Assembly (NCBI GenBank): GCA_022843095.1
Contig: JALHOH010000001.1
Coordinates: 510,001-542,000, forward strand
Direction of reading: 5' to 3'
From: Candidatus Saccharimonadota bacterium
Lineage (GTDB): Bacteria > Patescibacteriota > Patescibacteriia > 2-12-FULL-60-25
DNA length: 32,000 nucleotides
The translations under genes were made by a program, and so were the position numbers. The notes under the pieces are model-generated. The model was not told where the DNA came from. It worked only from the letters and a program-made list of their open reading frames with translations, and did not search any database. Position 1 is the first letter of the stretch, and every line of letters starts with the position of its first letter. Positions 1 through 16,030 of the stretch are shown one piece after another.

Positions 1-1257
1 GGATTCAAGTGCTTGCGCTGTTCACAAGGGGGTGTCGAGGGCGTTGCGCAGGATTTTGGTCGATGTGATACGGCGTCCTGTGCCCGTGGGGGGTGTCGCT
101 ACTATCCAGGAAGTGGCGTGGGAGGTCGCGGGGATGTGGTCGCGACGCTTGATTCTCGATTCAAGGCCGCCTGTCTGGCTGCAAGTCCGCCGCAAGAAAT
201 CCTGAGCTGTGGAAATACCTGTGGCTTAGGTGGATGTGGTCGGTGCTCGGATACACTTCCGGCCGGTCAGGGTGCGACGGTTCAAGGGCAGGTATTCGAC
301 GCGGTGTACTCCTTCGTTCCGGTGCCAAACGCGCGTGTCACCTTGTATGCGCAAGGGGTACGCGTGACAGAAACCTTTACGGATGAAGACGGGAGATTCC
401 GAGTGACGGGGCTTCATCCGCGCACAGAATGCGGAGGCTATCGCATCGTCGTTGACTCCTATCGGGATAACCCGTGCACGGCCCTTTCTCCGACGGCGGC
501 ACGTCCGGCGTGTGGTGGAAGTCCGCGGGTGGGGAACGGGGTGAATGAGGCTACGAATGGCGGATATTGGCCGTTCGAATCACGCCTGTTCAGTGCCACG
601 AACTTTGCAACGGCTGTCCGAAATAGTGAAGGGAAGATCTTCTTGATCCCACGCGTTGGGCAGAATGAAACCTTGGCAGTGGCTAACTGGAATGGATCGT
701 TACCGGGGAGCCGATACTTGGACGCGCACCTGAAATTGCCTCAAGGGTATTTGAACGGACTCGGACCGAACATTTACTGGGGCGCGCCGGGAAATGTGAA
801 TGTGACGGGGACGAATCCGCACGCGTATCTGTACTGTTTCCACTCGGAGAATCCGGCGGATACGAGTTGTGGGAGCTTCCAGAATGGTCCGCAGTCCATC
901 AAGTATCGTCGTGGAACCTGGGCGCGCAGCGGGCATTACGCCTACGGCTTGAACGACTGGGGGAAGCAAGGTATGAGCGCTGCGGTACAGTACATGTCCC
1001 GAACCATTCCGGACGTGATCGCCCGCATCGTGACCCAAGATCAATACTTTGAGGTCATTCCGCCGTCGACGCCACCTTCTTGTGGATCAGCTGGATCGCT
1101 CTGGCTCGTCATGGCACAAAATGCGGCCAGTGGTCAGGTGACGATCTTCAATCAAACTGGGGCAACAGGAGAATCGGTCGGGGGTCGGTTCGTGTGTAAT
1201 GGGGAGACCATCCCGGAACTTGGTGGAACCGTTTCCGCTTCGTTCCATGGTCTGTAG
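1..1257 (+). CDS. Secreted Cys-rich protein, 5' end outside the window, with a carboxypeptidase-regulatory-like beta-sandwich segment
   Basis: Frame 1 is open from base 1 (GFKC precedes the TTG at 13); stop at 1255-1257. The segment VQGQVFDAV..ARVTLYAQGVRVTETFTDEDGRFRVTGL fits the CarboxypepD_reg-type pattern. Many Cys; the rest is unassigned. Confidence 0.6.
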   Translation, partial: GFKCLRCSQGGVEGVAQDFGRCDTASCARGGCRYYPGSGVGGRGDVVATLDSRFKAACLAASPPQEILSCGNTCGLGGCGRCSDTLPAGQGATVQGQVFDAVYSFVPVPNARVTLYAQGVRVTETFTDEDGRFRVTGLHPRTECGGYRIVVDSYRDNPCTALSPTAARPACGGSPRVGNGVNEATNGGYWPFESRLFSATNFATAVRNSEGKIFLIPRVGQNETLAVANWNGSLPGSRYLDAHLKLPQGYLNGLGPNIYWGAPGNVNVTGTNPHAYLYCFHSENPADTSCGSFQNGPQSIKYRRGTWARSGHYAYGLNDWGKQGMSAAVQYMSRTIPDVIARIVTQDQYFEVIPPSTPPSCGSAGSLWLVMAQNAASGQVTIFNQTGATGESVGGRFVCNGETIPELGGTVSASFHGL

Positions 1258-1260
1258 TCT

Positions 1261-2016
1261 ATGTCACGTCGTGTCTTGCTCATCGTGGTTACAAGTGCCG
1301 TCGCCCTCGTTCTCGTGGGCGGCGGCATTTGGCTGCTTCGGAATCGATCGATAAATGGGGTTCAGGAGACGCCAATTGCCACAGAGTCTTCGCCGGAACC
1401 AACGCCTGAGGTAAATGGGTCCACGGTGCCGCCACCGGTGTACGCCACCAATACGTCGATTGCGCCAAAAACGCTTCCGGATGGAACGCGTATTGCAGGG
1501 CGAGAGGTGGTTGCGCGTGATCAGGATGGAGACGGGTTGTCCGATGCAGATGAGGCGGCGATCGGTACGGACGCACAAAAAGAAGACACGGATGGTGATC
1601 GTTTATCCGACCATGCGGAGGTGTTTGTGTATCGGACCGATCCGTTTGCTGTGGATGCGTTGGATGGTGAGGGAAAGCCGGTACGCATCGAGTATTGGTC
1701 TACGACGACCCGGAGCGGGGTGACCGCACCATCAGCGTCGATGTCTACCTCGACGAATGCGCCAATCGCCCCGGTTGAGGAAGATCGAGATCGCGACGGA
1801 TTGTCTGCGACTCAGGAGGTGCAACTCGGAACGGATGATCAAAAAGCGGATACGGATGGGGATGGATTATCGGATCGGGAAGAGGCGCAGGTGTATCGGA
1901 CCGATCCAACAAAGGCGGATTCTGATGAGGATTCCTTCCTGGATGCACAAGAAATCCAATCAGGGTATAATCCTCTAGGATCAGGTCGTTGCATCCGTCC
2001 CGATTGTATTCCGTAA
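1261..2016 (+). CDS. N-terminally membrane-anchored protein with thrombospondin type-3-like Ca-binding repeats
   Basis: ATG lies 4 nt after the upstream stop. TM helix LLIVVTSAVALVLVGGGIWLL. Repeats DQDGDGLSDADE, DTDGDRLSDHAE, DRDRDGLSATQE, DTDGDGLSDREE (DxDxDGxxDxxE). C-terminus GYNPLGSGRCIRPDCIP. Confidence 0.75.
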   Translation: MSRRVLLIVVTSAVALVLVGGGIWLLRNRSINGVQETPIATESSPEPTPEVNGSTVPPPVYATNTSIAPKTLPDGTRIAGREVVARDQDGDGLSDADEAAIGTDAQKEDTDGDRLSDHAEVFVYRTDPFAVDALDGEGKPVRIEYWSTTTRSGVTAPSASMSTSTNAPIAPVEEDRDRDGLSATQEVQLGTDDQKADTDGDGLSDREEAQVYRTDPTKADSDEDSFLDAQEIQSGYNPLGSGRCIRPDCIP

Positions 2017-2036
2017 CCTGTCGTTCATTCCGTTCT

Positions 2037-2819
2037 ATGGCTACGCCTCCACCAAATCTTCCGCTTGAGCCCGCACCGGCACAAGAGATCAACACCATGC
2101 CGCAACCTTCGGCTGCTTCTCCGTCCTCACGCGAACCAGAAGATATTTTTTCTGATTTAGATCGATCAGCACGTGGAATGGCGAAGCGCGCTTCTGTTCC
2201 AACAGCGGGAATCGAGCATGCCTCCGAGAGTTCATTTGCAAAGTATTTGGGTATTACTTTGATCGTCTTTTTGTTGCTGGGAGGAGCTGGCGCAGGGTTT
2301 TGGTACGTTTTTATCCGTTCTGCGGCACCGACACCTGCCCCAGTGACGACCCCGGCTCCGACTCCGACGCCATCGCCGCCCGCACCGGAGCCCATTCCAA
2401 CGTCACCGCTTGGGACAGAAGTTCCAGTTACGCCGACGCCGATCGACACGACGCCGACGAGCGTTTCAGATACTGCGCCGGTTCCTGAGACGCCACTTCC
2501 ATCTCCAGTTACAGCACCCCCGTCAGGGGTGAATATCCCGCCACCGACCGCACCGGTTCCAGAACCAGAAGTAAAGCCGGATACGGATCGGGATGGATTA
2601 GTGGATCAACGCGAATCCGAACTAGGCTTGGATCCTCGTAAAGCGGATACGGATGGCGATACGTTGAGCGACGGCGACGAGGTGCTTGTGTATGGAACGA
2701 ATCCGTTGAATACGGATACGGATGGCGATACCTACCCAGATGGAGTGGAGATCCAAAAAGGGTATAATCCGCGTGGAGAAGGTAAATGTCAGACGGCGGA
2801 TTGTCGCCTGACCCCGTAA
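2037..2819 (+). CDS. Membrane-anchored Pro-rich protein with TSP3-like Ca-binding repeats (paralog of neighbours)
   Basis: ORF 1989-2819. ATG at 2037 (MATPPP) is preferred because the next gene starts with the same MATPPP and a near-identical 22-nt start region. TM ITLIVFLLLGGAGAGFWYVFI, Pro/Thr-rich linker, DTDRDGLVDQRE / DTDGDTLSDGDE / DTDGDTYPDGVE repeats. C-terminus GYNPRGEGKCQTADC. Confidence 0.75.
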   Translation: MATPPPNLPLEPAPAQEINTMPQPSAASPSSREPEDIFSDLDRSARGMAKRASVPTAGIEHASESSFAKYLGITLIVFLLLGGAGAGFWYVFIRSAAPTPAPVTTPAPTPTPSPPAPEPIPTSPLGTEVPVTPTPIDTTPTSVSDTAPVPETPLPSPVTAPPSGVNIPPPTAPVPEPEVKPDTDRDGLVDQRESELGLDPRKADTDGDTLSDGDEVLVYGTNPLNTDTDGDTYPDGVEIQKGYNPRGEGKCQTADCRLTP

Positions 2820-2826
2820 GTTTTCT

Positions 2827-4203
2827 ATGGCAACGCCTCCACCACTCGCGGGAACCTATCCCGTTTCACCCGCTGCGGCTCCGATCAAACGTCGTGAGCC
2901 GGAGATCGTTGTCATTCCGGAAAAATTTTACGGTGTGGCATTAAAAATGAAGCCGGGAGAATGGCCGGAAGAAAAACCCCCCGCACCAACCCCTCCGGTA
3001 CCCCCTCCGCCCGCTCCCGCGCAGCCCGTGATGGTTGCCCCGGTTCCTTCTGCCTGGAGAACGGCGCTCCCGATGGTTGCGATTGTACTCGTCCTGATTT
3101 TGCTGGTTGCAGGAGGGTTTGTGTACCTCAATCGAGAGACGTTATTCCGTGCGCCGTCTACAGAGACACCGCCAACGCCACCACCTATCGTGGTGAATCC
3201 ACCAAGTGCGCCGGGAGGGGTGACGGCACAGGTTTCCGGGCAGGGTGTTTCGTTGACGTGGTTGGATAGCTCTGGTGATGAACAGGGGTTCCGGATTGAA
3301 CGGAAACAGGCGGATGGCACGTTTCTTGCGCTGACGAATGTGCCCGCTAACAGCACTGCCTTTTTGGACGTGTCTGTGCAGCCAGGGACGGCCTACGCGT
3401 ATCGGGTGATTGCCCAGAATGCAGGAGGGGAGAGCGGTCCATCGAATGAAGCCTCTGCAACGCTTCCTGCGGCAACGCCCCCTCCACCCGCAGCGCCTTC
3501 GCTTCCGCCACATGGATTGGATTCAGATTCTGATGGGCTGACGGATGTGGAAGAGCGTTTGTATGGGACGGATGAGCAGCGTGTAGACAGCGACGCGGAT
3601 AGTTATTTGGACGGCAACGAAGTCTTCCATCTGTACAACCCAAAGGCAAAAGCACCGGGAACCTTGGTGGAATCTGGGTTAATTAAGGTGTTCACCGGGG
3701 CCATTGGTTGGAAATTGTATGTACCAAATGGTTGGAATGTGGTGTTGGATCGGCCAGATGGTTCCGCGGCGACGATTGCCTCTGGGACGGGCGAAACATT
3801 TGTGATTTCTGTGGAAGACAATCCGCAGCGACTCCCGTTATTGGATTGGTATGCATCAAAAGAATCGTCCGCGAACGGTTTGCGATCATTTACGACAAAA
3901 GGGGGGTTGGAAGGGATGTTAAGCGCGGATCGTCTTACGGCCATTTTTGCCTGGGAAGGAAAAGTGTTCCGTTTGCGCTATGATTTAGATGGGCAAACGT
4001 TCATCAATTTCCGTACGACCTATGAGGTCATGCTGAACTCGCTTTCTTTGACCGGCGCTCCATTGGTGCAGGCGACGCTGGATTTGTCGCAGGGACCTGG
4101 GGATCTGACGGGGCTCGAGGCAACCAGCACGGTGCAAATGGTTGTGCCGACAGAAACCGGGGCGACCTCGACGGGACTAGTGGTGACTTCCACGACGCCA
4201 TGA
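2827..4203 (+). CDS. Membrane-anchored surface protein: Pro-rich linker, fibronectin type III domain, TSP3-like repeat, C-terminal globular domain
   Basis: Starts MATPPP. TM MVAIVLVLILLVAGGFVYL. FN3-like segment PSAPGGVTAQVSGQGVSLTWLDSSGDEQGFRIERK...YAYRVIAQNAGGESGPS (about 3202-3465). DSDSDGLTDVEE / DSDADSYLDGNE. The C-terminal ~180 aa are unassigned; a PsbP/DcrB-like sandwich is only a guess. Confidence 0.8.
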   Translation: MATPPPLAGTYPVSPAAAPIKRREPEIVVIPEKFYGVALKMKPGEWPEEKPPAPTPPVPPPPAPAQPVMVAPVPSAWRTALPMVAIVLVLILLVAGGFVYLNRETLFRAPSTETPPTPPPIVVNPPSAPGGVTAQVSGQGVSLTWLDSSGDEQGFRIERKQADGTFLALTNVPANSTAFLDVSVQPGTAYAYRVIAQNAGGESGPSNEASATLPAATPPPPAAPSLPPHGLDSDSDGLTDVEERLYGTDEQRVDSDADSYLDGNEVFHLYNPKAKAPGTLVESGLIKVFTGAIGWKLYVPNGWNVVLDRPDGSAATIASGTGETFVISVEDNPQRLPLLDWYASKESSANGLRSFTTKGGLEGMLSADRLTAIFAWEGKVFRLRYDLDGQTFINFRTTYEVMLNSLSLTGAPLVQATLDLSQGPGDLTGLEATSTVQMVVPTETGATSTGLVVTSTTP

Positions 4204-11412: not shown

Positions 11413-11562
11413 AAGAGGGTATCCACACCCTTGCGCGGGTTTCGGGGTTTTGGTAACGTGATGCCCGCAAGCGAGTGCACCATTTATCGTGGTCGCACCG
11501 CATGCCCTCGTCAAGCGGATGACTCAATGGATGAGGTTGTGGCGCCAAGCCCAAATCAAATT

Positions 11563-11640
11563 GGGTGCGTGGTGTAGCCCGGTTAACACGTCTCCCTGTC
11601 ACGGAGAAGACCGAGGGTTCGAATCCCTTCGCACCCGCCA
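11563..11640 (+). tRNA. tRNA-Asp (GTC), CCA encoded
   Basis: The cloverleaf folds by hand: acceptor GGGTGCG/CGCACCC, anticodon arm TCTCC-CTGTCAC-GGAGA, T arm GAGGG-TTCGAAT-CCCTT, 3' GCCA. Confidence 0.9.
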
Positions 11641-11642
11641 TA

Positions 11643-11675
11643 AAAAACACCTCTTCAGCCGAAGAGGTGTTTTTG
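11643..11675 (+). terminator. Intrinsic terminator after tRNA-Asp
   Basis: AAAAACACCTCTTC-agcc-GAAGAGGTGTTTTT. Confidence 0.8.
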
Positions 11676-11711
11676 TTGATCACGGCGGAATTCAGTCGTT
11701 CCCTTTCCATC

Positions 11712-11720
11712 TGCTATACT
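11712..11720 (+). promoter_or_regulatory. Extended -10 box TGCTATACT, 8 nt upstream of the ATG at 11729
   Basis: TGn+TATACT, then tccgccat (8 nt), then ATG. No SD. Confidence 0.45.
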
Positions 11721-11728
11721 TCCGCCAT

Positions 11729-13171
11729 ATGCGTTCTCGTTTTTTTGTTGGATCTGCGTTTTTTGCCGCCTGTGTGCTTGCACCAACGCTCGCGTTTGCG
11801 GCACCGGACGCCTCGCCACCGCAGTTAGGTGCTATTTCGCCGACCACGGCCACGGTGGCGCGAGAGTTGGAGCTCGCGGCGCCGGTGTCAGATGCCGGAG
11901 GGAATTTGTCGCACTGTATCGTGTTTGTGAATAACGTCTACAAGGGGACGATGTCGATTGGGACGAACCGTGTGTATGGTCCCTATATTTTTTACAAACC
12001 TGACACGTTTACGGTCCGAATCAAGTGTTTTGATACGACGGGAAACGAAGCAGAAGTGTCTGGGGCGATCAATGTCGCGCCGGCGGTTGCGGCTGATACC
12101 TCCCTTCCGACGGTTGGAAAGATCGAACCTGTGAGTACAAAGCCGGGGATTGCGACGACTTTTCGCGTGGCGTATGCGGATAACGTGGGTGTGACCGCCT
12201 GTGAGCTGTACATCAACGGTACTTCGAAAGGGCTGTTTGTGTTAAAAGGATCCTACGCGGATTACACCTACACGTTTCCGAATCCGGGAACCTATGCCAT
12301 GTATGCCGCCTGTCGGGATGCAGCAGGAAACCGGGTGGATGGAGAAGAAGTGCGGGTACTCGTGACGCCTGAAGGGGCGAATCCGGTCTCTGCTACGCGC
12401 TCGTCGTTGTATGTGACTCCGGGGCAAATTTTGTCGGACAGCAAAGATGGGGCAGAGGTGGTGGTATTCGTCCGCGATGAGAACGGTCAGCCTGTGCGGG
12501 GCGTGTTTGTGGCGGTTGAAACCTCACGGCCTGGGGTGGATCAAATCAGTCCCATTCAATCGGTGACAGGGGAGGATGGTGTCGCAAAGTATCGCATTCG
12601 TTCGGCGGTGCCAGGAACGAGCACCGTCCGCGCCTATGCGAACGGGGTGATTTTGCAGGCAACGGCGGTGCTGGACATGAACTTCAAAGGCGAGCGCTCG
12701 GTGCCGCAGGCGGGGAGTTTGATTAAGCTCACCTGTCCGGGCGGCGAAGGGGTGAACCACCCCTGTCGAACCGTGTACTATCTTTCGACGGATAACAAAC
12801 GGCGCGCCTTTCCACACGAAAAGGTGTTCTTTACTTGGTACGGGAACTTTAGCGGGGTGGTCGAGGTGAGCGAAGGGTTTATGGCCGCCATTCCATTGGA
12901 AAAGAACATCGTCTATCGGCCAGGGATCAAGCTCGTCAAATTCTCCACCGTGCCAAAGGTCTACGCCGTGGGGCGCGCGGGTCAGCTCCGGTGGGTCAAA
13001 ACCGAAGAGGCGGCGCGTCAGTTATACGGGGACAAGTGGGCGCAAAATGTGCATGACATCGCCGATGCGTTTTATGGAGACTATTCCTTTGGATCCGATA
13101 TCGCCTCCGGAACGGACTTTAATCCTGCCTACGAAGCGAATATCGCGGTGACGGTGGAAGGAAATTTGTAA
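11729..13171 (+). CDS. Secreted protein: signal peptide, Ig-like repeats, Big_1-like domain, C-terminal unassigned shared module
   Basis: ORF 11489-13171 runs through tRNA-Asp. The ATG at 11729 gives signal peptide MRSRFFVGSAFFAACVLAPTLAFA. Ig-like repeats carry ADNVGVTACELYINGT. The invasin-like segment is SSLYVTPGQILSDSKDGAEVVVFVRDENGQPV. The C-terminal module (12710-13123) is shared with the 15161 and 16031 genes. Confidence 0.8.
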   Translation: MRSRFFVGSAFFAACVLAPTLAFAAPDASPPQLGAISPTTATVARELELAAPVSDAGGNLSHCIVFVNNVYKGTMSIGTNRVYGPYIFYKPDTFTVRIKCFDTTGNEAEVSGAINVAPAVAADTSLPTVGKIEPVSTKPGIATTFRVAYADNVGVTACELYINGTSKGLFVLKGSYADYTYTFPNPGTYAMYAACRDAAGNRVDGEEVRVLVTPEGANPVSATRSSLYVTPGQILSDSKDGAEVVVFVRDENGQPVRGVFVAVETSRPGVDQISPIQSVTGEDGVAKYRIRSAVPGTSTVRAYANGVILQATAVLDMNFKGERSVPQAGSLIKLTCPGGEGVNHPCRTVYYLSTDNKRRAFPHEKVFFTWYGNFSGVVEVSEGFMAAIPLEKNIVYRPGIKLVKFSTVPKVYAVGRAGQLRWVKTEEAARQLYGDKWAQNVHDIADAFYGDYSFGSDIASGTDFNPAYEANIAVTVEGNL

Positions 13172-13213: not shown

Positions 13214-14212
13214 TTATCGACGTTTCAACACCTTTTTCACGGCAGCTTTGATGTGGGCGACTCCCATCCCAAAGTGTTCGAGCAATGCCTCCGGCGGGCC
13301 GGATTCTCCAAAACGGTCTTGGACACCGACGTGTTCCATGGGAACAGGAGCGGTCCGAGCAAGCGCCTCGGAGATCGCGCCACCGAGTCCGCCCGCCACT
13401 TGGTGTTCTTCCACGGTGACGATGCGTTTACAGTGCAGTGCTACATCGCGAATAAGGGATACGTCCAGTGGTTTAATGGTGTGGCAATTCACGACCATCG
13501 CGGAGATTTTGTTTCGTGCCAGTTCGTCTGCGGCGACGAGCGCTTTATAGACGAGCGGACCGCAGGCGATAATCGCCACATCCTTGCCCTGGCGGTAGAT
13601 TTCAGCTTTTCCAATCCGGAATGGCGTCTCTTCGGTGGTGAAGATGGGGGATTTTTCACGCGCAAATCGGACGTACGCCGGACCGGTGAATTCAGCGATC
13701 GCTTCGGTTGCCTTGCGTGCTTCAATCATGTCGCACGGGGCGATCACCGTCATATTGGGGATCACGCGCATGATCGCCATATCTTCGATGGCTTGATGGG
13801 TCGCGCCATCCGGTCCAACAGACACGCCCGCGTGACTTCCAATGATTTTGACGTTCGTTTCCTGAAGACAAATGTTTGTGCGCACCTGTTCCCAGGCTCG
13901 ACCAGGGCAAAACATCGCGTACGAGGTGATGAACGGCATTTTTCCGGCAAGTGCCATCCCCGCAGCAAGAGCGGCGAGCAGCTGTTCGTGCACACCCATT
14001 TGGATAAATCGATCCGGAAATAGCTGCTTGAACTCAAGATTCCGTGTCGATTCGGTAAGGTCTGCGCAAAGAACGACCAGTTCCGGGTGTTTCATGGCGG
14101 CACGGACAACGCCTTGTCCGTACCCGTCTCGGGTCGGTTTTTGTTCCAAATGTGTGCGGACAAGATCCGGCACTAACTGGGGATCGTTTGTGCGAAGCGT
14201 GGGTTTAGCCAT
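13214..14212 (-). CDS. tkt: Transketolase, C-terminal subunit (pyrimidine-binding + C-terminal domains)
   Basis: TRDGYGQGVV..CADLTESTR...FPDRFIQMGVHEQ..., typical of the split transketolase subunit B. The ATG at 14212 overlaps the upstream stop by 8 nt; a GTG at 14230 is an alternative. Confidence 0.9.
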   Translation of the reverse strand: MAKPTLRTNDPQLVPDLVRTHLEQKPTRDGYGQGVVRAAMKHPELVVLCADLTESTRNLEFKQLFPDRFIQMGVHEQLLAALAAGMALAGKMPFITSYAMFCPGRAWEQVRTNICLQETNVKIIGSHAGVSVGPDGATHQAIEDMAIMRVIPNMTVIAPCDMIEARKATEAIAEFTGPAYVRFAREKSPIFTTEETPFRIGKAEIYRQGKDVAIIACGPLVYKALVAADELARNKISAMVVNCHTIKPLDVSLIRDVALHCKRIVTVEEHQVAGGLGGAISEALARTAPVPMEHVGVQDRFGESGPPEALLEHFGMGVAHIKAAVKKVLKRR

Positions 14213-15077
14213 AGTGGGCGCGATGTTCACGAAGCAACGTTTGTTCTAACGCATGCAGCTCTTCGAGGGCGTGTTCTGCCTGACCTGGTTTGAACGGCTG
14301 GCTATGCCACAGGTAGTTGTTTTCCATGAACGAAACCCCGCGCCCGGGAATGGTATGCGCAATAATACAGATGGGCTTTTGGTGGATCGTTTTTGCTTCT
14401 TCGAGTGCGCGCCAAACATCCTGAATGTCGTTGCCGTTGCATTCAATGACGTGCCAGTTAAATGCCGTGTATTTTGCCGCAAGCGGTTCGAGCGGCATGA
14501 TGTCTTCGGTGTCGCCATCAATTTGGATGTTATTCCGATCGATGATGCACACCAAATTATCCAGGCGATTTTTCCCGGCAAAGAGCATGGCTTCCCAGTG
14601 GAGACCGGCCTCATGTTCACCATCCGAGGTGAGGCAGTAGGTCATCCAGGTTTTTTTATCCATCTTTGCCGCATACGCCATGCCCGCGGCCTGCGCGAGT
14701 CCAGAGCCGAGCGGGCCAGAAGTGGTTTCGGCGCCGGGGAGACGCAGTCGTTCTGGATGACCTTGCAACCGTGATCCAAGCTCGCGCAGCGTCAATAATT
14801 CCTCTACCGGAAAATATCCCGCTTCAGCCATGGCGGCATAGCGGATGGGGCAGATATGGCCATTCGAGAGAATGCAGCGATCGCGATCCGGCCATTCTGG
14901 GTCGTCCGGCCGGTGGTGGAGCGTGTGAAAGTAGAGGACGGTAAACACATCGGCCATCCCAAGCGGACCGCCTTGATGACCGGATCCGGCGTGCGCAACC
15001 ATGCGGATGACGTGCTGGCGCAATCGACAGGCGATGATCTCGAGTTGTTTTACCTTGGCATCATGGAGATGCGGCAT
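14205..15077 (-). CDS. tkt: Transketolase, N-terminal subunit (TPP-binding)
   Basis: GSGHQGGPLGMADV, SNGHICPIRYA, SGPLGSGLAQAAGMA, TSDGEHEAG, IIDRNNIQIDG. The ATG at 15077 is chosen because it is preceded by TGGTACACT + 8 nt; ATG 15095 is an alternative. The longer ORF to 15209 would run through a terminator and into the upstream gene. Confidence 0.88.
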   Translation of the reverse strand: MPHLHDAKVKQLEIIACRLRQHVIRMVAHAGSGHQGGPLGMADVFTVLYFHTLHHRPDDPEWPDRDRCILSNGHICPIRYAAMAEAGYFPVEELLTLRELGSRLQGHPERLRLPGAETTSGPLGSGLAQAAGMAYAAKMDKKTWMTYCLTSDGEHEAGLHWEAMLFAGKNRLDNLVCIIDRNNIQIDGDTEDIMPLEPLAAKYTAFNWHVIECNGNDIQDVWRALEEAKTIHQKPICIIAHTIPGRGVSFMENNYLWHSQPFKPGQAEHALEELHALEQTLLREHRAHYG

Positions 15078-15085
15078 ACGAGGAG

Positions 15086-15094
15086 AGTGTACCA
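15086..15094 (-). promoter_or_regulatory. Extended -10 box TGGTACACT, 8 nt upstream of the transketolase ATG
   Basis: The minus strand reads TGG TACACT ctcctcgt ATG. Confidence 0.4.
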
Positions 15095-15116
15095 TGTGAT
15101 GGCTGTTTCTGCATGA

Positions 15117-15149
15117 TAAAAAACACCCGCCCGTAGGCGAGTGTTTTTT
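15117..15149 (-). terminator. Intrinsic terminator after the cupredoxin-fusion gene
   Basis: The minus strand reads AAAAAACACTCGCC-tacg-GGCGGGTGTTTTTT, starting 12 nt after the stop. Confidence 0.75.
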
Positions 15150-15160
15150 GGTCTGCGTTT

Positions 15161-15952
15161 TTAGTTCACGACGTTGATCGTACCCTGCATGACCGGGTGG
15201 TTCGAGCACTTGTAGTCGAACGAGCCAACCGTGTCGAATTTGCGGACGTACGTCTTGCCTGGGGCGATGAGCCCGGAGTCAAACGCGTTGCCCGTGACCG
15301 TGTGCGGAACGATATCGGCATTCGTGAAGGTCACCGTCGCGCCCTTCTTCACCGTCATCGTTGCCGGGACGAACCCGTTGTTCATGTTTCCGATCGTCAC
15401 CGTCACGGCCGTTTCATCGAATTGCTTGTCCTGCGTGATGGTGGTCGTGAGCGTCATCACGTTCTGTGGCTGGAAGTCGCTGGCCGTCTGGATTCCCGTC
15501 CCCGTGCGATAGTTCACGAAGAAAGCATCCGGGATGTCATCAATCTGGTTCTTCCAGTTGATGCCGTAGAGCGTCTGCGCCAACTGTTCGGAACCGACGT
15601 GGCGAAGGACGCCTCCCTGATCAACGACGTACACCTTTGGATCCGTCGTGATCTTCACCATCTTGTATCCCGGGCGATACGTGACGTTTCCACCCAGCGG
15701 AATCGTGGCGAGTTGGCCATCCGTGACCTTTTTGACCCCGTCAAAGTTCTTGTACCAGGTAAAATAGGTCTTGTCGTTCGGGAACACATAGCGTTTCCCG
15801 TTTGGAGCGAAGTAGTACACCGTGCTGCCAGAACCCTTAATCAGATCACCTGCGTTAAACGCGACACCTGCGGCATGCGTCGTGGCAAGTGGGGCGGCCA
15901 ACATGCTGACCGTACCAAGCGTCGCCAGTGAGCGAACGAGAAGTTGCTTCAT
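15161..15952 (-). CDS. Secreted fusion protein: shared unassigned module + amicyanin/plastocyanin-like type-1 copper (cupredoxin) domain
   Basis: The ATG at 15952 gives signal peptide MKQLLVRSLATLGTVSMLAAPLATTHA. The shared module is aa 34-162. The C-terminal 83 aa carry MTVKKGATVTFTNADIVPHTVTG...GSFDYKCSNHPVMQGTINVVN, which has the full His / Cys-x2-His-x2-Met ligand set. Confidence 0.85.
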   Translation of the reverse strand: MKQLLVRSLATLGTVSMLAAPLATTHAAGVAFNAGDLIKGSGSTVYYFAPNGKRYVFPNDKTYFTWYKNFDGVKKVTDGQLATIPLGGNVTYRPGYKMVKITTDPKVYVVDQGGVLRHVGSEQLAQTLYGINWKNQIDDIPDAFFVNYRTGTGIQTASDFQPQNVMTLTTTITQDKQFDETAVTVTIGNMNNGFVPATMTVKKGATVTFTNADIVPHTVTGNAFDSGLIAPGKTYVRKFDTVGSFDYKCSNHPVMQGTINVVN

Positions 15953-16030
15953 AAAGAAGTTATTGAATGAGTATCTACAGGGTGCCGATGCGGGATCGGA
16001 CCTGTCAATCATACCTGAAATACGGGCAAA

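Follow-up and report, generated by a model that had tools for sequence, protein, structure and literature searches.

Closest described systems

In the auracyanins, halocyanins and sulfocyanins, in neisserial Laz and in AccA, an N-terminal tether with a flexible linker keeps a type-1 copper carrier on the outside of the cell. These tethers are lipid anchors or transmembrane helices, the carriers feed known respiratory chains, and such lipid- or helix-tethered cupredoxins are used by organisms without a closed periplasm. A gene for a protein with the same surface-carrier logic was analysed here in a stretch of 32,000 nucleotides, referred to as the window, from contig JALHOH010000001.1 (positions 510,001 to 542,000 of the forward strand) of assembly GCA_022843095.1, which is listed as a Candidatus Saccharimonadota bacterium. 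It encodes a secreted protein of 263 amino acids in which a cupredoxin domain follows a module common to many proteins of the lineage. The tether would here be this folded module of 135 residues; the signal peptide ends in T-H-A-A with no Cys, which sets the protein apart from the lipid- and helix-tethered class. Bacteria of the candidate phyla radiation (CPR) such as Uhrbacteria have been described as obligate fermenters without electron-transport chains, and the source cell is tiny and probably fermentative.

The copper domain itself is closest to the blue-copper domains of thaumarchaea. The best sequence match in the Protein Data Bank (PDB) was the C-terminal cupredoxin of the Nitrosopumilus maritimus multicopper oxidase 9cck (phmmer, E 1.9e-17), and the best structural match was the N. 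maritimus cupredoxin Nmar_1307 (5fc9), on which an AlphaFold model of the domain, built on 42 homologues, superposed at 1.2 Å over 93 columns (Foldseek, probability 1.00). The motifs TN-D---HTV, FDSG and C-x2-H-x2-M are common to these domains and the window protein. In 9cck, however, the domain is part of a fusion with a two-domain multicopper oxidase, and 5fc9 stands alone, neither with a wall-binding module; their source organisms are aerobic ammonia oxidisers with copper-based respiration.

Amicyanins followed in the PDB sequence search (1id2, E 2.6e-8). The amicyanin of Paracoccus has the same fold, the same four ligands in the same order and the same shortest loop, C-x2-H-x2-M, and the copper-domain model fitted 1id2 at 1.4 Å over 88 columns (Foldseek, probability 1.00). 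The flanks of the loop are similar too, with GSFDYKCSNHPVMQG in the window protein and GSYDYFCTPHPFMRG in amicyanin. Amicyanin differs in being a free periplasmic protein without an anchor module, and the window protein lacks the methylamine dehydrogenase context and scored 38.2 bits against the amicyanin equivalog model TIGR02657, for which the cut-off is 110.2; an assignment as amicyanin orthologue was therefore rejected.

The gene and its copper domain

A preliminary description, made from the letters of the window, had placed an amicyanin-type blue-copper domain at the end of this gene. The gene model that it used was confirmed: in an alignment of 42 homologues, all begin at the second methionine (MKQLL) of a longer open reading frame (ORF), 15161-16012 on the reverse strand, the start of which was dropped. 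The interval that it gave for the domain, 15164-15412, covers exactly residues 181-263. Residues 217, 249, 252 and 255, read from their codons (Table 1), are H, C, H and M and match the amicyanin ligands column for column in the PDB alignment, so that the full type-1 ligand set that had been claimed is present.

Two Pfam models recognised the domain above their curated cut-offs, Copper-bind (PF00127; 38.5 bits against 21.2, E 1.6e-9, residues 183-261) and Cupredoxin_1 (PF13473; 30.9 bits against 27, residues 168-261). It was modelled with a predicted local distance difference test score (pLDDT) of 86-92, and it fits solved cupredoxins at 1.2-1.4 Å. The domain is a plastocyanin/azurin-family cupredoxin with the full type-1 ligand set in order, for which copper binding is predicted. 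With more than 1,100 homologous clusters, the best 120 of them with an identical two-domain build, this identity goes far beyond chance.

The label 'amicyanin-type' was found to be apt for the loop length, CSNHPVM aligning with C-T-P-H-P-F-M, and for the local sequence, and to fail at the level of orthology. The plastocyanin equivalog TIGR02656 was rejected in the same way as that of amicyanin (31.9 against 87.85 bits), the loop being C-x2-H-x2-M and not C-x2-H-x4-M. None of the ORFs of the window that were compared with Pfam was a methylamine dehydrogenase (mau) gene, and the conserved neighbours in 80 related loci are other genes. The copper domain is otherwise an ordinary member of the plastocyanin/azurin superfamily, already so labelled by automated annotation.

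The signal peptide is the sole hydrophobic stretch of the protein; neither the sequence nor the alignment of homologues revealed a lipobox Cys, a sorting motif or a transmembrane helix. The homologues have the consensus APLASxAA ahead of the N-terminal module, and the signal-peptide region was modelled by AlphaFold as a single N-terminal helix of low confidence. In the linker, residues D175 and K176 are invariant among the 42 homologues. With a pLDDT below 50 for residues 168-180 and a predicted template modelling score (pTM) of 0.41 for the full-length model, the two domains showed no fixed mutual orientation or interface.

Distribution of the protein family

A listing of homologues gave 1,117 clusters at 90% identity, and the architecture was checked on the best 120. 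All of these have the same two domains, measure about 263 amino acids and are 64-78% identical. Where the source gave names, they were 'cupredoxin domain-containing protein' or 'plastocyanin' from Candidatus Uhrbacteria, Magasanikbacteria or Patescibacteria. In a collection of species-representative genomes, relatives are encoded in at least 510 species, the named ones overwhelmingly Uhrbacteria or Patescibacteria. The view that a copper protein is unexpected here was overstated: the databases already give cupredoxin or plastocyanin, and cupredoxins are on record from CPR bacteria that have NirK and have been proposed as the electron donors of NirK in other CPR lineages (PMC5581439, PMC12931201).

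Replacement of the copper-ligand cysteine by aspartate

The ligand positions were compared among 188 distinct orthologues. Position 249 is Cys in 134, Asp in 52 and Ser in one, and is not alignable in the last; Asp accounts for 52 of the 53 alignable replacements of Cys. The complete His-Cys-His-Met set was found in 129 of the 134 Cys-type orthologues (96%). His252 is kept in 99% of the Cys-type proteins against 23% of the Asp-type, being otherwise Asn, Tyr or Phe, and the pattern His-Asp-His-Met occurs in eight orthologues. Since both the full set and His252 are so consistently retained in Cys-type proteins, the type-1 site, where present, is under strong purifying selection.

The Cys codons are TGC or TGT and the Asp codons GAC or GAT, so that each switch needs two nucleotide changes; codons a single step from those of Cys are essentially absent (one TCA). 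On a tree of the flanking proteins (transketolase, Rpe and isoleucyl-tRNA synthetase, IleRS; 65 taxa), parsimony required nine state changes against 20 (minimum 14) when the states were shuffled, and trees of the protein's own domains gave 24 changes against 46. The switch from Cys to Asp arose at least about eight independent times. The Asp-type proteins were considered as paralogues, which was rejected on their single copy per locus and identical synteny, and as decaying copies, which was rejected on the divergence of their copper domain relative to the N-terminal module (1.60, against 1.64 in the Cys-type). Asp-type loci, in our numbering, are L007, L009, L011, L014, L019, L022, L024, L029, L034, L036, L038, L041, L048, L055, L056, L066, L068, L069, L072, L073, L076, L078 and L081.

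The azurin variant C112D, engineered in the laboratory and associated with 'type 2' and 'type zero' copper, has natural equivalents in the Asp-type orthologues, especially in the eight with His-Asp-His-Met; the window protein, in contrast, is Cys-type, and most natural Asp-type proteins have lost the second His. Azurin C112D still binds copper, but its reorganisation energy is considerably higher than in the wild type; functional electron flow is considered to depend essentially on the native ligands Cys and Met (PMC8915257). By this analogy the Asp-type proteins would probably carry electrons inefficiently. The family must have some conserved role besides electron transfer, and the replacement of Cys by Asp in 28% of the orthologues limits blue-copper electron transfer as a function common to all its members.

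A change of the axial Met to Asn or Gln was observed in a few Cys-type orthologues (L046, CTFHSGNQG; L062, CTVHEVQTG; L065, CSIHPANQG). In known cupredoxins, an axial Gln of the stellacyanin type shifts the reduction potential.

The N-terminal module

The copper domain had been described as fused to a module that it has in common with neighbouring secreted proteins, and three copies of the module were indeed located in the window (Table 1). Residues 29-163 had no match in Pfam, and when the PDB was searched with its sequence profile, only chance antibody 'AVYYC' matches came up. An exhaustive HMMER search, by contrast, found it in 4,464 clusters at 50% identity, in proteins of 147 to 1,551 amino acids, in some right behind the signal peptide and in others C-terminal. 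The domains fused to it in 79 representatives were Big_7 (13), Big_1 (4), the purple-acid-phosphatase N domain (3) and chagasin-type inhibitors (2), with single fusions to GH114, GH10, YHYH, DUF3048, Peptidase_C25, Trypsin, Peptidase_S11 and one cupredoxin. Fusions to Peptidase_M23 and many stand-alone module proteins of about 178 amino acids were also seen.

The module was modelled separately, since a Foldseek search with the full-length protein was swamped by cupredoxin matches. With a more diverse alignment, AlphaFold gave two beta-beta-beta-alpha-beta-alpha units (pLDDT 95.6, pTM 0.84). The best, though weak, fold matches in the PDB were to repeat domains of EccB, a protein of type VII secretion systems (E 6e-3 to 4e-2, probability 0.6-0.96, template modelling (TM) score about 0.3). 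The secondary-structure pattern agrees with the published description of the EccB repeat, a four-stranded sheet with two helices that its authors likened to the wall-binding subunit PlyCB (PMC4769845), and each half of the module has this composition. The two have no sequence similarity, and their global TM score of about 0.3 is low; for EccB itself, binding to peptidoglycan is a hypothesis. Among predicted viral structures the best match was an uncharacterised actinophage protein (E 1.8e-6, TM 0.65/0.78), and weak one-repeat matches were found in phage CHAP, amidase, M23 and lysozyme proteins, a weak fold resemblance to the accessory regions of phage lysins.

It is somewhat probable that the module is an anchor which retains proteins in the envelope or wall. 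This reading is based on the spectrum of cargo domains, the position next to signal peptides and the lack of a lipobox, transmembrane helix or sorting motif.

Genomic surroundings

Synteny was examined in the best 80 related loci. The order IleRS(-), rpe, the module-Ig protein, the module-cupredoxin protein and the N- and C-halves of transketolase, with IleRS divergent from the others, is kept in about 60 of the 80, exceptions being mostly contig ends. A hairpin and T-run similar to that downstream of the cupredoxin gene were found in 35 of 77 related loci. A functional operon link with the pentose-phosphate genes was rejected: the entire region is syntenic in the lineage and a terminator-like hairpin precedes the transketolase gene, and these neighbours are therefore not read as functional partners.

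Table 1. Features of the module-cupredoxin locus, with positions counted from the first nucleotide of the window.
Feature	Coordinates	Strand	Basis
Coding sequence of the module-cupredoxin protein (263 amino acids and stop)	15161-15952	-	ORF list; start backed by 42 aligned homologues
Sec-type signal peptide, about residues 1-27	15872-15952	-	Hydrophobic core and A-x-A-like end (T-H-A/A), by sequence inspection
N-terminal shared module, residues 29-163; two tandem beta-beta-beta-alpha-beta-alpha units, putative envelope/wall-binding anchor	15464-15868	-	Clusters, AlphaFold, Foldseek
Linker, residues 164-180, with conserved QDKQFDE motif	15413-15463	-	Model and alignment
Cupredoxin (type-1 copper) domain, residues 181-263	15164-15412	-	Pfam, NCBIfam, PDB search, AlphaFold, Foldseek
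His217 codon (CAC), N-terminal copper ligand	15302-15304	-	Codon read; His in 186 of 188 orthologues
Ligand loop Cys249-Ser-Asn-His252-Pro-Val-Met255 (Cys249 15206-15208, His252 15197-15199, Met255 15188-15190)	15188-15208	-	Codons read from the DNA; aligned with the amicyanin loop
Terminator-like hairpin and T-run, 20 nt past the stop codon, ahead of the transketolase gene	15116-15143	-	Consensus scan; RNAfold -12.9 kcal/mol
Split transketolase, downstream (N-half about 14205-15098, C-half 13214-14230)	13214-15098	-	Translations read as halves; syntenic in 64-69 of 80 loci
Module-Ig neighbour, upstream: N-terminal module (16976-17380), then Ig-like Big_7 repeats	16031-17440	-	Pfam and module search; 58 of 80 loci
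Ribulose-phosphate 3-epimerase (rpe), upstream neighbour	17447-18091	-	Pfam; syntenic in 64 of 80 loci
Third module copy, at the C-terminus of an Ig-domain protein (ORF listed as 11489-13171)	12749-13141	+	Pfam and module search

Several gene starts deserve attention. The listed ORF of the transketolase N-half (14205-15209) overlaps the end of the cupredoxin gene, and its true start is probably the ATG near 15098, past the hairpin. The ORF with the third module copy runs through a tRNA-Asp gene (11563-11640, forward strand), so the true start of this Ig-module protein must lie downstream, probably at MRSRFFVG. The IleRS ORF (18083-21535, forward strand) has about 190 residues before the catalytic domain and overlaps the divergent start of rpe, which would be an N-terminal extension or a mis-set start.

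The housekeeping genes of the window encode FtsA, FtsZ, NrdR, HtrA, pyruvate kinase, the split transketolase, Rpe, IleRS, a class II aminoacyl-tRNA synthetase, RNase Y, TruB and IF-2, and several secreted repeat proteins are present in addition. Four consecutive genes at 13-4203 (forward strand), one with CarboxypepD_reg, two with bacterial TSP3 repeats and one with fn3, lie upstream of ftsA and ftsZ and look like a cluster for repeat proteins that are secreted or exposed on the surface. The GC skew of the whole window is positive in nearly all 2-kb bins (cumulative value from 0.15 to 1.83), though genes lie on both strands.

A further ORF, 21571-23268 on the reverse strand, encodes 565 amino acids with a DsbA/thioredoxin domain, carrying CPFC, only at the C-terminus (residues 397-558). 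It contains an internal start resembling a signal peptide (MKYLL...AFA), and some 370 of its residues lack any family match. With quinones expected to be missing from the genome, the question arises of what would re-oxidise a secreted DsbA-type thiol oxidase.

Search for redox partners

The preliminary description had reported no respiratory or denitrification genes, and none of the window genes scanned against Pfam matched such a family. The search was extended to 1.28 Mb of flanking sequence from the 80 related genomes. No second cupredoxin was detected there by tblastn with the copper domain, motif scans found no HCHxxxH multicopper signature and no CopA, and the CxxCH matches were scattered and chance-like.

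Proposed function and alternatives

In the function proposed here, an Uhrbacteria-like CPR bacterium would secrete the two-domain protein to its envelope via Sec. The N-terminal tandem, resembling EccB repeats, would hold it on the cell's own wall or envelope; retention on the own wall is suggested because the lineage puts the module on peptidoglycan hydrolases, proteases, glycosidases and Ig adhesins. The flexible linker, of some 17 residues, would carry the cupredoxin domain, whose His-Cys-His-Met site most likely binds one copper. On the outside of the cell, the site would take single electrons from a donor and give them to an acceptor, both encoded away from the locus; candidates for these partners are a host protein, a thiol-oxidising system, or a NirK or multicopper oxidase from another part of the genome. 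We put this forward tentatively, as a quite possible description of the Cys-type protein: an envelope-tethered type-1 copper electron carrier.

Four observations weigh against such a carrier. Neither the window nor the 1.28 Mb of flanks yielded a donor or acceptor. The wall-binding role relies on weak fold matches (TM about 0.3, E 6e-3). The 52 Asp-type proteins among the 188 orthologues, mostly without His252, evolve at an equal relative rate, which indicates that some members function with no blue-copper site. Finally, the family occurs in at least 510 species, whereas nirK has been reported in a small fraction of CPR genomes (PMC7906910, PMC12931201). As an alternative, the protein may serve specifically as the donor of a NirK or multicopper oxidase whose gene lies elsewhere in that genome. 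Such a role would follow the published Kaiserbacteria, Harrisonbacteria, OLB19 and C7867-001 models, which pair a cupredoxin with NirK (PMC5581439, PMC12931201), and would suit the closest solved relative, a cupredoxin fused to the NirK-like N. maritimus multicopper oxidase. With nirK in about 3% of CPR genomes (more than 140 of 4,645 metagenome-assembled genomes, PMC12931201; 19 genomes, PMC7906910) and no NirK or multicopper signature in the flanks, it is considered improbable.

The existence of Asp-type orthologues adds weight to two other explanations. In the one, the wall-tethered domain binds or buffers envelope copper as do the cupredoxin-fold proteins CopI, CopC or CupA, and so protects a poorly defended cell or captures scarce copper. 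The near-invariant His217 and the exchange of Cys for another metal ligand, Asp in 52 of 53 cases, suggest that metal binding was kept and thiolate was not; engineered azurin C112D still binds copper (PMC8915257), and no redox partner lies nearby. On the other hand, there is no Met- or His-rich tract as in CopI, no CopA, CopZ or CsoR was found in the window or flanks, a single site per protein offers little buffering capacity, and most Asp-type proteins lose His252 too, which leaves few ligands. The Cys-type site is moreover a classic buried electron-transfer site, and copper handling is judged unlikely.

The other explanation, which we also regard as unlikely, is a mainly non-redox surface role, with the domain used for recognition or as a scaffold for a wall component, the module-Ig neighbour or a host molecule, and with copper structural in some lineages. 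A parallel is found in the early-nodulin-like relatives of plant phytocyanins, which have lost ligands. Constraint on the rest of the domain is equal in Asp-type and Cys-type proteins, the gene adjoins that of the module-Ig surface protein in most loci (58 of 80), the N-terminal module of the cupredoxin family is unusually conserved (75% mean identity), and the other cargo domains of the module are all hydrolases, inhibitors or adhesins. Retention of all four ligands in 96% of the Cys-type proteins is, however, not predicted by a purely structural role; no binding partner was identified, and the full-length model has no fixed interface between the two domains.

A bolder extension of the electron-carrier proposal can be framed, in which a bacterium without a respiratory chain would use the surface copper protein as the exit or entry point of a redox link to the outside. 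Electrons would move between the episymbiont surface, for example a secreted DsbA-type thiol oxidase or another donor, and oxygen, nitrite or a host redox protein, and the Asp switch would be an adaptation to habitats poor in copper or oxidant. We hold this extension to be improbable; if true, the Asp-type proteins would be natural 'type-2/type-zero' or metal-swapped cupredoxins.

Significance

No description of the fusion, of its conservation or of the Asp remodelling was found in the literature, only generic mentions of CPR cupredoxins. The fusion of a cupredoxin to a widespread, unannotated module of the lineage, a probable wall anchor, is new. New are also the near-universal occurrence of a copper protein at a fixed position in a lineage regarded as being without electron transport, and the convergent remodelling of its site from Cys to Asp. 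For bioinorganic chemists, the natural Asp-type set is a ready-made evolutionary series of the engineered C112D cupredoxin. The module is a very common, unannotated building block of the surface proteome of the lineage, and its ligand would help to explain how episymbionts construct and use their envelope. A strongly conserved surface type-1 copper protein in at least 510 species points either to extracytoplasmic redox or copper chemistry that metabolic reconstructions have omitted, or to an electron-transfer fold that was recruited for another job at the cell surface.

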